A stretch of DNA of 64,000 nt from Betaproteobacteria bacterium (GCA_021730905.1 JAKFYK010000021.1:1636-65635); one strand, 5' to 3'; positions 2,766 through 59,499 are shown, counted from the first letter of the stretch. The notes: a model not told the origin generated them from the sequence alone. A program made the numbers and translations.

Positions 2766-2849
2766 CTGTCATTCCCGCGAAGGCGGGAATCCATAACGCC
2801 GGTGCCATTTGAGGCATTGCATGGATTCCCGCCTTCGCGGGAATGACAG
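2766..2849. repeat. REP/MITE-like element: perfect 29-bp inverted repeat with a 26-bp spacer
   Basis: 2766..2794 ctgtcattcccgcgaaggcgggaatccat is the exact reverse complement of 2821..2849 atggattcccgccttcgcgggaatgacag. Each arm holds the internal palindrome attcccgc-gaag-gcgggaat. The track ORF 2809..3066 (MDSRLRGNDR...) is just its translation. Confidence 0.85.
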
Positions 2850-2915
2850 GAAGGTTATTCTCCCGTGCGCTCAAAGGCGCCCTCGCAATCCCCCTGTGAG
2901 CCGCCGAGCAGCACA

Positions 2916-2998
2916 GCCAAGTCAGGGAATTCTGCGAGGACTGTTTGAGTCCTCGCGTGCTTTTTGCGAGGGCGAGTTCCGCAGCAGCCTGACTTGGC
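2916..2998. repeat. Nested palindromes (REP-like)
   Basis: The outer arms gccaagtcagg (2916..2926) and cctgacttggc (2988..2998) are complementary. The inner hairpin is gcgaggac (2934..2941) with gtcctcgc (2949..2956). Confidence 0.7.
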
Positions 2999-3050
2999 GA
3001 GCAGCGCAGGGAAGTCCGAAGGACCGGCGAGCCGGGGGCGGTTTTTCTTT

Positions 3051-3086
3051 GGTTACTTTCTTTTGAACGCTCAAAAGAAAGTAACC
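3051..3086. repeat. Perfect 14-bp stem hairpin (REP-like)
   Basis: ggttactttctttt (3051..3064), loop gaacgctc, aaaagaaagtaacc (3073..3086). Confidence 0.8.
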
Positions 3087-7770: not shown

Positions 7771-9411
7771 CTAAGCTTTCACCCGCACGTCGCCCTCGGA
7801 CAGCGCAATCTCCCTCGTCACCGACCGCGTATGCGCCGACACCGGCACGAATGCCGAGTGCGAGCCCGGTCCGCCGGCGACGATGATGCTGATGTCTTCC
7901 GCTTTCTCCGAAATCGGCACCATGGAATCCGGTCCGATGTCGCCCAACTCCGCGCGGCGACCCGTGGCCATGCGCTCGAACTCGCTGCCCCTGGAACGTC
8001 CCGCGCGCAACTTCGACGCATCCCACAGCCGGCGCTTTACTTCCGCCTTGCTCCAGCCCTCGCGGTGAAACAGGTTTGCGTGCTGCGGAGACAGCAGAAT
8101 AAACGGCGCGCCGCCGTAGATGTAGTCGCTGCTTGCCGGATACTGCATGGTGTCGGCGATCATTGAGAGCACTTCCTCGGCCTTTTTCGCCGTCATGTTC
8201 ATGCTCCAGGTGCCGAGCGCGCCGACCACCGTTATGGTATTCGCATCAGCGGCAAAGCCGCGCTCCACGTGCAGCGACTCCCACGGACTCGCATCTTCGT
8301 TTTCCGCGCAGCAGAAAGTGTATTTCGCCGGCTGACCCTGTGTCGCCTTGTCCATCTCGCCGGGTAATGCGCCGCCGATGTTTTGCAGGATCAGCCGCAG
8401 CGCGCGGCCCAGCGTCGCGTTCGCCCACGTGCCCGGCCCCAGACAACCGGCACCGCTGTTCACTTCCAGCCACTTCGCAATCGGCCCGTTCACGATCAGC
8501 CACACCGCCGACGGATTGGTCGTCGCCTGTATGGCTTGCAAATGAAATTTGGAAGTCGCGACAGCTTCTGCCGCGGCGATCAGCACCGGCAGATACTCGG
8601 GATAACAACCGGCCATCACGCCCTGAATGGCGATGTACTCGACCGTCGCCGCGCCCATGCCTGGCGCAATTGTCGCCACCACCTCATCCGGCGCGCGATG
8701 GGTGTGGCGCAGCATGCGCGCAACCGCCTCCTGCGTAGGGGGTGCTACGATCAGGCCGTCGCCCCAGCGCTGCCTGATGAAAAACTTGTTGAATTCATCC
8801 AGATCGGCGGGCGCTTCAATCAGCTTTGCACGCGGCGCGGCAGGCGCAATATCAACAGCCTTGGCTGCGCCGGCAGACGCCGCCTCGCACAACAAACGCG
8901 CGATATCATCAGCGCACTTCGCCGCGATCTCGCGCAACTCCTCGCGCGAACGCGTGCCAAATGGATGCGGTATCAACGCCATGGGTAGATCCGGCGAACC
9001 CAGCGCTTTTTGCTGCGCACGCCCCAGCCCGCTGAAGCTCTGCGACACAACCGTCAGCGCCGCGTTGCCACGCTTTGCTGCTTCTACACTGTCGTGGATA
9101 CTCCACGACGTGCAGGAGCCTCAGTCGCCGGAGCCCGTAATAATCGCGTCCGTCTGCGCAACCAGTTCGTTCATTGCCGCTTCGGACAACCCCTGCGACG
9201 CGCTGCGCTTGCGGCACTTGATCACCTGAGCAACGCCGTGCTTCTCGATCAGCACCCGTGACAGGTCTTCCACCAGATAATTGAAGTTCGGCTTCGAATT
9301 ATCGATAAAGCCTATGGTTTTCCCGGCGAGACTATCCAGCGATTGACGAGATTTTTGTGGTGTTGTAAGGCAGGGCGCGACGGGTTCGTATACGAGCATG
9401 CTGCTTGACAT
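7771..9411 (-). CDS. Candidate selenoprotein: a UGSC-motif domain (TGA at 9123..9121 read as Sec) fused to an uncharacterised C-terminal domain of about 370 aa. It would be 546 aa if read through.
   Basis: Track ORFs 9121..9411 and 7771..9048 share one frame (9411 and 9048 are both divisible by 3). They are separated only by a TGA plus 24 sense codons that I translated by hand. The junction reads ...AQTDAIITGSGD-U-GSCTSWSIHDSVEAAKRGNAALTVVSQSF. An AGGAG lies 5 nt upstream of the ATG at 9411, whereas the downstream ORF has only a GTG and no obvious SD. A stem-loop follows the TGA. Confidence 0.65.
9087..9112 (-). other. Putative bacterial SECIS-like stem-loop downstream of the in-frame UGA
   Basis: On the mRNA strand: UGA, an 8-nt spacer GGCUCCUG, then CAC-GUCGUGGA / loop GUA / UCCACGAC-(A bulge)-GUG. 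The perfect 8-bp core is 9109..9102 paired with 9098..9091, and the loop contains GU about 20 nt after the UGA. Confidence 0.5.
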
Positions 9412-9703
9412 AGTGACTCCTGAAGAAAATTGCTTTCTGGATAAGCCTTAAATTTTATCCCGAATTGACATCCCCCAAGGTCCAGTGATGCGTCATTTAT
9501 ATCAATTGGGGGGAAATTACTTGGCACGCAGCCAAATACCTGCCGTTTCCCGGAAATTGATCGTATGTGATTGCTTATTTTGAAGATATGTGCGCCACCG
9601 AACATTCACAAAAGATACCTGCTGATATCGTTTAAAAAGCTTTCATGTGCGCCAGCCAGATTCTTTGCTTCCTAACATTACGTAATTTCTGAGAGAAGTT
9701 TCC

Positions 9704-12688
9704 ATGGACATGCCTACACTTCGCCGTCAGTTACTGACGCTCGCCATCTTTCTAACAACGTTGACATTGAGCGGCTGGGCCTCGGCAGAGCCACCTTCGC
9801 GCGCAGCGCGCCTGAGCTACATCAGTGGCACGGTTAGTTTTTCGCCGGCGGGCCAGCCCGATTGGGTGCGGGCTGTGGTCAACCGGCCACTGACCACCGG
9901 CGACCGCCTGTGGGCGGATGACAATTCGCGCGCCGAGTTACAGGTCGGCGGCGCGGCGATCCGCTTGGGCGCGTTTACCAGCGTGACCCTGCTCAATCTC
10001 GACGATCGCATCGCGCAGATGCAGCTTTCACAAGGCACCCTGAAAATTAAAGTCCGCCGCATGGGGCAGAACCAGGTGTTTGAGGTGAATACGCCCAATC
10101 TCGCCTTCACCCTGCGCCGTGCCGGCGAATACCGCATCGATGTGGACCCGAACGGCGACGCGACGGCGGTCATGGTGCAAAGTGGCCGGGCCGAGGTGTA
10201 CGGCGACGGCGCTTCGTATGCAGTCAATCCTCAGCAAGGATATCGCTTCTACGGCACCGGCCTGTCCGACTACGAACGCTTGGCGGCACGCCGCGATGAC
10301 GACGAGCTGGATCGCTGGGCGCGCGACCGCGACCGCATCGGCGACAATTCGCTGTCCGCGCGCTATGTTTCGCCCGAACTGGTCGGCTATGAGGATCTCG
10401 ATGCCAATGGCACCTGGCGTGCCGACCCGACTTACGGCAACGTGTGGACGCCAACGCGCGTGGCCGCAGGCTGGACCCCTTACCGCGACGGCCATTGGGC
10501 ATGGATCGACCCCTGGGGCTGGAGTTGGGTGGACGATGCGCCGTGGGGCTACGCTGTGTCGCACTACGGCCGCTGGGCCAACATCAGGGGTGCCTGGGCG
10601 TGGGTTCCGGGCCCGCCACGCGAGCAGGCAGTGTATGCGCCCGCGCTGGTAGCGTTTGTCGGCGGCAATAATTTTCAGGCCACGCTGTCCATTGGCAGCA
10701 CGATCGCAGCAGCCGTCGGCTGGTTTCCGCTGGCGCCGCGCGAGGTCTATCAGCCCTCCTATCCGGTGAGCCGCAGATATTTCGACAACATTAATCGCAG
10801 CAACGCAGTGATCGCCCCCGCTACCATTACCAACGTTTACAACACCACCATCGTCAACAACACTACCATCGTCAACAAAACCGTCAATGTGACCAAGGTA
10901 GTCTATGTCAATCAGCAGGTGACGGGTGCCGTGGTCGCCGTGCCGGCGCAGGCGTTTGTGCAATCGCAGCCGGTGGCCAAGTCGGCGATGCGGGTATCCA
11001 GAGAAGCGGCCGCCAGCGCGTCGGTGGCGCATGTCGCCGCCGTGGTGCCAGTACAGCAAAGCGTGCACGGCGGCGCTCCCAACGCCGGCCGCAAGCCACC
11101 GGCCCGTGAACGAGCCGTTGTCGCCCGCACCGCGCCGCCTCCGCCACCGGTTGCCTTTGCCGCCCAGCAGCAGCAACTGGCCGCCACGCCGGGCGCGCCG
11201 ATCGGCGAAGCGCAGCGCAAGCAATTGAAACCCGCTGCTCCGGCAGTGCCGGCGCCCACGGTCAGCGTGGTGACCACTGCCCAAGCACCGGCACCGACCG
11301 CGTCGCCACCGGCGACCCCTCCGACCAGCAAGTCCCGGGACGCGCGCAAAGCGGACGCAGCGAAGGCCGATGCGGATAAGGGCGCAGCAGGTAAAACGGA
11401 TGCCGCGAAGGCAGATTCAGCAAGGGCCGACACGGCAAAGGCCGAAGCCGCCAAAGATGCAACGGCTAAAGGCAAAGCATCGAGGACCGATGCAGCGAAA
11501 GGCGAGGCAGGCAAAACAGATACTGCCAAATCCGGTGCAGCCAAGAGCGACGCAACCAAAACGGACGCCGCAAAGGCCGATTCAGCTAGAGCCGAGGCCG
11601 CCAGAGTAGACGCTGCAAAAGCCGAAGCGGTGAAAGCTGATGCTGCCAAGGGTGCGACTGCACGAGCAGACGCAGCGAAAGCCGATGCAGCCAAAGCGGA
11701 AACAGCCAGAGTGGATGCCGTAAAAGCCGAAGCGGTGAAAGCTGACGCCGCCAAGGGTGCGACTGCACGAGCAGACGCAGCGAAAGCCGATGCAGCCAAA
11801 GCGGAAACAGCCAGAGTGAATGCCGCAAAAGCCGAAGCGGTGAAAGCTGACGCTGCCAAGGGTGCGACTGCACGAGCAGACGCAGCCAAAGCCGATGCAG
11901 CCAAAGCGGAAACAGCCAAAGTGAATGCCGCAAAAGCCGAAGCGGTGAAAACTGACGCTGCCAAGGGTGCGACTGCACGAGCAGACGCAGCCAAAGCCGA
12001 TGCAGCCAAAGCGGAAACAGCCAGAGTGGATGCTGCAAAAGCCGAAGCGGTGAAAGCTGATGCTGCCAAGGGTGCTGCAGCTAGGGCCGAAGCGATGAAA
12101 GCCGATGCCGCCAAAGCCGCCACAGCTAGCGCTGAAGCTGCCAAATCCGAAGCAGCTAGAGCTAATGCCGCGAAAGCCGAAGCGATGAAAGCCGATGCTG
12201 CCAGAGCCGCCGCAGCCAGAGCTGAGGCCGCTAGCGCTGAAGCAGCCAAATCCGAAGCAGCTAGAGCTAATGCCGCGAAAGCCGAAGCGATAAAAGCCGA
12301 TGCTGCCAGAGCCGCCGCAGCCAGAGCTGAGGCCGCTAGCGCCGAAGCAGCCAAATCCGAAGCAGCTAGAGCTAATGCCGCGAAAGCCGAAGCGATGAAA
12401 GCCGATGCTGCTAGAGCCGCCGCAGCCAGAGCTGAGGCCGCTAGCGCTGAAGCAGCCAAATCCGAAGCAGCTAGAGCTAATGCCGCGAAAGCCGAAGCGT
12501 TAAAAGCCGATGCTGCCAGAGCCGCCGCAGCTAGAGTCGAAGCAGCGAAGGCTGAAGTAGCCAGAATCGAAGCCGCCAAGCCTGTTGGGGCCGCACCTCC
12601 GCCCACGGCCCGACCGCGCGCTTCGAAACCCGATCCTGACACTGCGGCGGAGGAGGAAAAGGGAAAGGGAAGGAAAAGATCCGAATAG
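9704..12688 (+). CDS. Secreted FecR-domain protein with a Trp-rich middle region, a Pro-rich linker and a long Ala/Lys/Asp/Glu tandem-repeat tail
   Basis: 994-aa ORF with a signal peptide (LAIFLTTLTLSGWASA). The FecR-like N-domain contains GTVSFSPAGQPDWVRAVVNRPLTTGDRLWADDNSRAELQ. The Trp-rich block is WTPYRDGHWAWIDPWGWSWVDDAPWGYAVSHYGRW. 35-aa repeats follow from about residue 640. Confidence 0.8.
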   Translation: MDMPTLRRQLLTLAIFLTTLTLSGWASAEPPSRAARLSYISGTVSFSPAGQPDWVRAVVNRPLTTGDRLWADDNSRAELQVGGAAIRLGAFTSVTLLNLDDRIAQMQLSQGTLKIKVRRMGQNQVFEVNTPNLAFTLRRAGEYRIDVDPNGDATAVMVQSGRAEVYGDGASYAVNPQQGYRFYGTGLSDYERLAARRDDDELDRWARDRDRIGDNSLSARYVSPELVGYEDLDANGTWRADPTYGNVWTPTRVAAGWTPYRDGHWAWIDPWGWSWVDDAPWGYAVSHYGRWANIRGAWAWVPGPPREQAVYAPALVAFVGGNNFQATLSIGSTIAAAVGWFPLAPREVYQPSYPVSRRYFDNINRSNAVIAPATITNVYNTTIVNNTTIVNKTVNVTKVVYVNQQVTGAVVAVPAQAFVQSQPVAKSAMRVSREAAASASVAHVAAVVPVQQSVHGGAPNAGRKPPARERAVVARTAPPPPPVAFAAQQQQLAATPGAPIGEAQRKQLKPAAPAVPAPTVSVVTTAQAPAPTASPPATPPTSKSRDARKADAAKADADKGAAGKTDAAKADSARADTAKAEAAKDATAKGKASRTDAAKGEAGKTDTAKSGAAKSDATKTDAAKADSARAEAARVDAAKAEAVKADAAKGATARADAAKADAAKAETARVDAVKAEAVKADAAKGATARADAAKADAAKAETARVNAAKAEAVKADAAKGATARADAAKADAAKAETAKVNAAKAEAVKTDAAKGATARADAAKADAAKAETARVDAAKAEAVKADAAKGAAARAEAMKADAAKAATASAEAAKSEAARANAAKAEAMKADAARAAAARAEAASAEAAKSEAARANAAKAEAIKADAARAAAARAEAASAEAAKSEAARANAAKAEAMKADAARAAAARAEAASAEAAKSEAARANAAKAEALKADAARAAAARVEAAKAEVARIEAAKPVGAAPPPTARPRASKPDPDTAAEEEKGKGRKRSE
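11621..12540 (+). repeat. In-frame 105-bp (35-aa) tandem repeat array, about 9 units in two subfamilies
   Basis: The unit anchor gccgaagcg recurs at 11621, 11726, 11831, 11936, 12041, 12086, 12176, 12281, 12386 and 12491. Spacing is 105 bp except at the subfamily junction. Neighbouring units differ at only 2-4 of 105 nt. Degenerate related sequence extends from about 11335 to about 12575. Confidence 0.9.
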
Positions 12689-58509: not shown

Positions 58510-59499
58510 ATGCGCATGTGCGCTGGAAACGACAAAATTCATACGCTGGCGTGGACGCTGGCGGCGGTTGCCTGCGTGATGTCGCACGCGTACGCGCAAG
58601 ACTCCTACCCTGCCCGTCCAATAAGAATTGTCGTACCCAGCGGTGCCGGCGCGGGCAGCGACATACTCGCGCGGATGATCGCGCAACGTCTGACCGAGCG
58701 GCTGGGCAGGCAGGTGGTGGTGGAAAATCGTACCGGCGCCGGCAACATGATTGGCTACGAGTTTGCCGCCAAATCGGCGCCCGACGGTTACACGCTGGTT
58801 TCGGGTGTGAGCACGCTCGCCATCAATGCGGCAACCTACAAGAAAGTGCCGTACGACGCGCTGCGCGATTTCGAGCCGATTTCGCACACGACGAACGTGC
58901 CCAATCTTCTGGTGACGCACCCGGCGCTGCCGGTGAAAAATCTCAAGGAACTGATCGCGCTGGCGAAATCGCGTCCCGGCGAGCTGCTGTATGCCTCGGC
59001 GGGACACGGCACCAATCCACACCTGACGATAGAACTGCTCGCGACCATGGCGCAGGTGCGCTTTGTGCATGTGCCGTACAAAAGCGGCCCGCCCGGATTG
59101 ACCGATCTCATCGCAGGCCAGGTGCAATTCATGGCCACCGCCATGAATTACCTGCGGCCACATGCGCTCGGCGGACGCTTGCGCGCGCTCGGTGTCACCA
59201 CCGCAAAACGCACGATCTCCATGCCCGACATGCCCACGCTCGCCGAATCCGGCGTGCCCGGCTACGAATCGGTGCAGTGGTACAGCATGCTTGCGCCGGC
59301 GAAAACACCGCGCGCCATCATCGATCGGCTCAACAGGGAAATCGTCGCCTACCTGCGCTTGCCGGAAGTGATGGAAAAAATGACTGCCGACGGCAATGAA
59401 GTCGTCGCCAGCACGCCCGAGGAATTCGCGGCATTTCTGCGCGCGGAAACAGTGAAGTGGGCGAAGGTCGCCAGGGCCGCCGGGATCAAACCGGAATAA
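58510..59499 (+). CDS. Bug/TctC-family periplasmic solute-binding protein
   Basis: 329 aa with signal peptide plus [26 protein letters not shown]. Confidence 0.9.

Follow-up and report, generated by a model that had tools for sequence, protein, structure and literature searches.

We asked whether a short hairpin just downstream of an in-frame UGA, on the minus strand of the 64-kb stretch of DNA analyzed here (the window), is a bacterial SECIS element, and whether the two open reading frames (ORFs) called around it are a single selenoprotein gene. The called ORFs, 9411..9121 (96 aa, ending ...ITGSGD-TGA) and 9048..7771 (425 aa), lie in one shared frame on the minus strand, and nothing stands between them except the TGA at 9123..9121 and 24 sense codons. 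Reading TGA as U turns the locus, in translation, into one open frame of 546 aa plus a stop, in which this UGA is the only one in frame and U is residue 97 (Table 1). The protein around this site reads ...TGSGD-U-GSC-TSWSIHDSVEAAKRG... and carries the U/C-G-S-C motif of the UGSC family (...TGSGD-U-GSC-TSWS...). Pfam PF24696 (UGSC family) matches residues 19-175 with an E value of 1.1e-43 and 149.8 bits, against a cut-off of 25, and the UGA lies inside the match. The score against NCBIfam NF041046, "UGSC family (seleno)protein," was 111.8 bits, below the equivalog cut-off of 125. The window protein is a diverged long form that fits the UGSC family at the Pfam level and not at the equivalog level. 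The neighboring genes are unrelated housekeeping genes (DUF1223, PHP, Sua5/YciO, M50 peptidase, TrpRS, DUF6600, and aldo-keto reductase) and give no functional hint. The divergent neighbor at 9704-12688 (+) encodes a 994-aa DUF6600 protein with a long Ala/Lys-rich in-frame tandem-repeat region, seemingly unrelated to the selenoprotein.

Table 1. Features of the UGSC locus, in window coordinates; nt are counted from the U of the UGA
Feature	Coordinates	Strand	Evidence or remark
Shine-Dalgarno AGGAG, 5 nt 5' of the ATG (9411..9409)	9417..9421	-	sequence read directly
UGSC-family selenoprotein, long (fused) form	7771..9411	-	546 aa + stop, U97; frame kept in 20/20 same-genus genomes
UGSC domain, residues 19-175	8887..9357	-	PF24696
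In-frame UGA, proposed Sec codon (U97 of U-G-S-C)	9121..9123	-	TGA at 121/128 homologous sites; Pfam UGSC match across the UGA
Outermost 3 bp, nt 5-7 with nt 42-44	9080..9119	-	predicted structure; 81% of cells paired; weak, optional
Lower stem, nt 9-14 with nt 35-40, A34 (9090) bulged	9084..9115	-	MFE structure; 74.7% of cells paired; double changes in 3/6 pairs
Upper stem-loop of the proposed SECIS, nt 15-33: GUCGUGGA / GUA / UCCACGAC	9091..9109	-	G23 = 9101, U24 = 9100; columns 15-22 with 26-33 paired in 98.6% of cells, G23 and T24 invariant (alignment A1, 91 distinct Sec sequences)
C-terminal partner domain, residues ~190-546	7774..8844	-	probably "Unknown_1"; Cys269 invariant; no Pfam/PDB/fold match

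The original prediction placed the hairpin at 9087-9112, and both its coordinates and its sequence proved exact. As minus-strand RNA (9112..9087), the segment reads CACGUCGUGGAGUAUCCACGACAGUG and folds as (((((((((((...)))))))).))), which reproduces the claimed perfect 8-bp core with a GUA loop, a bulged A, and 3 further bp. The minimum free energy (MFE) of this fold, -14.0 kcal/mol, compares with a mean of -5.1 ± 2.1 kcal/mol for shuffled sequences (z = -4.2), none of which, among 200, folds as stably. Folding 76 nt around it again puts this hairpin at the center of the MFE structure (-34.8 kcal/mol; z = -3.0), where a lower stem lengthens it; 9087-9112 is the inner part of this lower-stem element, 9084..9115. 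The spacer between the UGA and the hairpin is 8 nt long (GGCUCCUG), as had been stated, and the apical loop, expected about 20 nt after the UGA with G-U in it, starts 19 nt past the UGA (nt 4-22 lie between), that is, at nt 23 from the U of the UGA, with G23 and U24 in place. The spacing of 16 to 37 nt and the loop G that the prediction gave for bacterial SECIS elements agree with PMC13188914. The hairpin had also been placed inside coding sequence (SWSIHDS), and we find a continuous frame there that encodes TSWSIHDS. Since the predicted loop is just 3 nt (GUA) and is closed by an A-U pair, it probably must open to AGUAU to present G23/U24.

The original prediction held that such a perfect palindrome is not expected by chance. 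Perfect 8-bp stems with loops of 3 to 8 nt yielded 31 matches, at about 20 separate places in the 64-kb window, where dinucleotide shuffles yielded 11 ± 4, and taken by itself the hairpin is not a very unlikely one. What carries the case is therefore comparative conservation and not the palindrome itself. An Rfam scan of 8500-9700 at E <= 10 returned no SECIS family and one chance sRNA match only, so no curated model backs the SECIS call. As a general property of the window, perfect 8-bp short-loop hairpins are about three times as common as in dinucleotide shuffles (e.g., 2771-3086, 806-830, and 59126-59150), and several of them cluster in the 2.5-3.3 kb intergenic spacer.

In the bacterial model of Zhang and Gladyshev (2005), as summarized in PMC13188914, a bSECIS element has a loop of 3 to 9 nt, a stem of 4 to 16 bp, 16 to 37 nt between UGA and loop, and an MFE of no more than -7.5 kcal/mol; its loop carries a G within the first two positions, mostly in the arrangement N1-G-[G/U]-N-N2 (PMC13188914). 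The window hairpin, with its 3-nt loop, 8-bp stem, 19-nt spacing, and -14.0 kcal/mol, lies inside all of these published limits, and the loop A22-G23-U24-A25-U26 matches the pattern. Like the consensus, it is a stem-loop in coding sequence just 3' of a Sec-UGA, the frame continues past that UGA and is conserved downstream, and we saw no conflicting feature. Compared with the consensus, its sequence varies unusually little among paralogues that share only ~50% protein identity.

A closer comparison can be made with the E. coli fdhF SECIS, an element of 40 nt with a minimal upper stem-loop at nt 15-31, 11 nt past the UGA, a bulged U17, and G23/U24 in the loop (PMC8659212). The upper stem-loop of the window likewise begins exactly 11 nt past the UGA, with G15 as its first paired base, it has G23/U24 in its apical loop, and its less important lower stem reaches back toward the UGA. 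Unlike the fdhF element, in which the bulged U17 is essential, it has a perfect upper stem of 8 bp: among the 91 aligned sequences described below, U16-A32 is paired in 89 and C17-G31 in all 91, leaving no bulge. A34 alone is bulged, beneath the upper stem on the 3' side, and the predicted loop is a triloop or pentaloop, whereas that of fdhF is the hexaloop AGGUCU. We conclude that the element shares the register of the E. coli SECIS and probably works like it but is no strict fdhF-type copy.

The host has SelA, SelB, tRNA-Sec, and SelD, as the bSECIS description expects of a genome that carries such elements. In this genome (G000), selB (C16:17996-19897) scored 449.5 bits (cut-off, 242) and the adjoining selA 578.5 bits (cut-off, 268), and a tRNA-Sec gene (74.5 bits; cut-off, 47) lies ~1.3 kb downstream of selB on contig C16; no tRNA genes were found in the window, the tRNA-Sec being on another contig. 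The selD gene (419 bits; cut-off, 125; G000:C143:1186-2112, minus strand) has an in-frame TGA of its own, and so does the gene for the formate dehydrogenase alpha subunit, FdhA (G000:C40:8075-11137, minus strand). In both, a small hairpin follows the TGA, with GU at nt 23-24 in FdhA and at nt 24-25 in SelD, the same place as in the UGSC SECIS. Genes with a UGSC domain number 14 in this genome, all with a TGA and a hairpin at or near the same register; they are spread over contigs C3, C4, C13, C23, C27, C31, C32, C34, C55, C60, C80, C104, and C125, and the window gene is C13:10758. Together with SelD and FdhA, the 14 UGSC genes bring the selenoprotein genes of this genome to at least 16, a large number for a Burkholderiales genome.

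If the hairpin is a SECIS, then, as the original prediction had it, Sec forms should carry the structure with covariation between its arms, and Cys forms should lack it. We searched 60 related genomes and added 80 further loci from GTDB genome contigs. Orthologues were present in 20/20 same-genus genomes, with many paralogues per genome and exactly one TGA in every match that spans the Sec site. Nearly all of the 80 GTDB loci belong to MAGs of uncultured Betaproteobacteria/Burkholderiales recovered from water, soil, and groundwater; Polynucleobacter is represented at 44 to 46% identity. Over all loci, the codon homologous to U97 that was not TGA was TGC or TGT (7 sites), and the frame downstream of the TGA was open at each of the 121 homologous sites that bear one. 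The bSECIS constraints were passed by 97/97 distinct Sec-site sequences, 90 of which open their loop at nt 23, and the median best-hairpin energy was -16.1 kcal/mol. One locus from a Dehalococcoidia MAG (L116:3208-3261) combines the Sec-UGA with an in-frame UAG in place of the Trp of the others (GSCTA*GLHD) and has a weakened hairpin; the UAG could reflect a pseudogene, an assembly error, or further recoding.

Alignment A1 covers 54 nt from the UGA, ungapped, in 91 distinct Sec sequences (Table 1). Two-sided changes occur in four of the eight upper-stem pairs, where the arms compensate for each other: G15-C33 becomes A-U, G18-C30 becomes A-U or U-G, U19-A29 becomes G-U, and G21-C27 becomes C-G (five sequences). 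None of 500 alignment shuffles reached the observed pairing, double-change counts, or covariation score, and pairing falls from 87% to between 25 and 53% when the 3' partners are slid by 1 to 3 columns. The lower stems are looser (75 to 81% paired). Covariation is thin, with 23 double-change cells of 1547 in an almost invariant element; relatedness among the sequences makes the shuffle statistics overstate significance, and with so little variation in the element they are better taken as supportive than as a formal test.

Frozen synonymous sites give a stronger signal than covariation. They are confined to codons +4 to +10, and codons -5 to +2 and +12 to +20 vary freely; Gly +1, for example, is GGC in 59 sequences, GGG in 24, GGT in 12, and GGA in 6, and Ser +2 is encoded by six codons. 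At the hairpin positions the same codons recur far beyond their shares elsewhere in the same 75 genes: Thr ACG in 87/93 (50% elsewhere), Ser TCG in 90/93 (38%), Ser AGT at +7 in 93/93 (7.8%), Val GTC in 45/48 (29.8%), His CAC in 90/93 (52%), and Asp GAC in 96/98 (58%). These frozen third positions, above all the rare AGT and the GTC, are what the best-surviving rival explanation cannot account for, namely, that the palindrome is a by-product of the conserved peptide T-S-W-S-I/V-H-D by the active site and has no RNA function, with Sec inserted via some other element or the UGA read otherwise. The arms do fall in conserved codons, D(+10) is kept even in Cys forms, and the GC-rich window has no shortage of 8-bp hairpins. 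However, a by-product of the peptide would not explain why nonsynonymous changes are compensated at the synonymous site of the partner codon, as in the paralogues on C104, C125, and C34, where Trp UGG has become Cys UGC and is paired with a change of GUC to GUG, CUG, or AUG. Nor would it explain why paralogues with another peptide (TPAVLRA) still form a hairpin there: those on C31 and C27 read GSCTPAVLRAS, and their hairpin, GCCCGC/CGUGUU/GCGGGC, has the same 5' start and a 3' arm shifted by one nt. Given also the loss of the hairpin in Cys forms, we regard this explanation as very improbable.

The Cys forms comprise eleven TGY sites from roughly five lineages. Two (L125 and L126) are long-form paralogues of the same bacterial family with a CGTS motif, three (L128, L129, and L144) are stand-alone forms from other lineages of the phylum, L143/L147 is one decayed copy, and five more members of the L129 clade came from a protein search, their DNA being obtained by exact look-up. 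No conserved hairpin was found at these eleven sites. Here the median energy of the best local hairpin is -8.6 kcal/mol and the loops scatter between nt 15 and nt 32; the permissive bSECIS filter lets three of the eleven through by chance. Members of the L129 clade can form just two to five of the eight register pairs, and their synonymous sites vary freely. A 6-bp stem survives at the SECIS register in one Cys form, L128 (L128:1780-1833, G264:C82), which has TGC and the motif CGSC; the loop of this stem, GCCAU, lacks GU. This hairpin may be a remnant of a (recent) Sec-to-Cys replacement, and it does not refute the SECIS reading. Both expectations are thus borne out, and conservation among Sec forms, covariation, frozen synonymous sites, and loss in Cys forms together back the predicted bacterial SECIS. 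We hold with high confidence that the hairpin is the SECIS element of the UGSC selenoprotein mRNA in this long-form gene.

A second rival takes the UGA as a real stop and the locus as two genes (96 aa and ~425 aa), parted by a terminator, an attenuator, or a translational-coupling hairpin. Gene callers do split the locus in this way, and all 120 best database homologues are "hypothetical proteins" of 328 to 438 aa that start after the UGA. Set against this, protein-level conservation extends over the 24 codons from the UGA to the GTG where the second ORF was called, the Pfam match continues through the UGA, homologues that have Cys in its place are uninterrupted, and every orthologue keeps the frame; the lack of a U-run after the hairpin counts against a terminator. 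We judge two genes to be slightly less probable still than a by-product of the peptide. Since the close database homologues, at 350 to 438 aa, all start after the UGA, we conclude that these genes are systematically miscalled and that the selenoprotein, with its catalytic Sec, is missing from these MAG proteomes. Least probable of all is a palindrome that acts as DNA (a protein-binding site, a REP-like repeat, or a recombination site), for although the arms are perfect Watson-Crick complements in the window copy, such that both strands could fold, variants pair through G-U wobbles on the sense strand only (17-31, 18-30, 19-29, and 22-26, each an A-C mismatch if read on the opposite strand), G23/U24 of the loop never vary on the sense strand, and no conserved palindrome was seen in Cys forms or at sites unrelated to the UGA. 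A dispersed repeat was rejected by a motif scan of the whole genome, in which every occurrence of the motif, two chance matches with 3 mismatches aside, lay exactly 14 nt beyond the T of a UGSC TGA.

With the hairpin read as a SECIS, the window gene can be set beside the published UGSC family. The UGSC-containing protein ranks among the most abundant selenoprotein families of the GOS metagenomes, turns up more often in non-marine samples, and is represented by 255 Sec and 21 Cys forms; a fusion with a conserved "Unknown_1" domain is reported as well (PMC2398784). The window protein resembles this family in its U-G-S-C motif, in a domain match that runs across the UGA, and in a fused or adjacent partner domain of unknown function, and its relatives resemble it in the large excess of Sec over Cys forms and in a non-marine lineage. 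It differs in scoring below the NCBIfam equivalog cut-off and in belonging to a set of 14 members in one genome, all of them Sec forms. UGSC genes were found in 4/300 genomes of the class and 6/401 of the phylum (evenly drawn samples, with G000 in both counts), and given this rarity the expansion in this Burkholderiales family is lineage specific. A partner domain of ~350 aa accompanies 12 of the 14 paralogues, fused in four and encoded by a separate adjacent gene, in either order, in eight; the other two have no partner nearby, and one of these is at a contig end. Stand-alone Cys-form genes of other lineages are also followed by an unnamed gene of ~358 aa.

The C-terminal partner of the window protein probably corresponds to "Unknown_1," the domain to which UGSC is fused in published work (PMC2398784). 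A Pfam search with this domain (residues ~190-546) gave no match, and a PDB sequence search with the whole 546-aa protein gave nothing meaningful. The AlphaFold model of the protein is confident (pLDDT, 84.5; pTM, 0.86). In a Foldseek search of this model against the PDB, the C-terminal domain was without any match, and the N-terminal domain gave weak, generic alpha/beta (flavodoxin/Rossmann-like) matches only, with TM <= 0.2 on the query. In an alignment of 23 fused forms, positions C97(U), C100, and C269 are invariant. Our most likely guess is that the protein acts as a selenol/thiol redox module (U97-x-x-C100) serving a partner domain with the invariant Cys269.

From these features a course of decoding can be proposed, in which SelB binding and the actual insertion of Sec at the UGA are inferred. 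The ribosome would reach the UGA (9123..9121) with the stem-loop, 11 nt downstream, still folded outside it. The stem-loop at nt 15-33 would expose G23 and U24 in its apical loop, where the C-terminal winged-helix domains of SelB-GTP-Sec-tRNA(Sec) would bind, and Sec would be delivered to the A site. The UGA would then be decoded as U97 of the U-G-S-C redox motif instead of as a stop, after which the ribosome would melt the hairpin, itself coding for T-S-W-S-I-H-D, and complete the 546-aa fusion of UGSC and partner domains.

The UGSC family, the "Unknown_1" fusion, and the bSECIS model are already published, and the window gene adds a further member without a new mechanism. We give a low, though not negligible, chance to the idea that the near-identity of the SECIS sequence beyond its shape, among paralogues that are ~50% identical and in 14 genes that are all Sec forms, carries extra meaning, and this idea has two versions. 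One possibility is that SelB in this lineage reads more than the GU loop, such that the element would be a lineage-specific, high-affinity SECIS without the U17 bulge; if this is true, coordinated selenium-dependent expression of the whole paralogue family could follow. A related possibility is that the UGSC domain and its obligate partner make up a class of selenium-dependent reductases not described before, which has diversified to act on many substrates in Burkholderiales of fresh water and soil. For annotation, the fixed register (a TGA, 11 nt, and a 19-nt stem-loop with GU at nt 23-24) offers a simple rule by which miscalled genes may be repaired. For the family itself, the hairpin provides a clean, covariation-supported SECIS.
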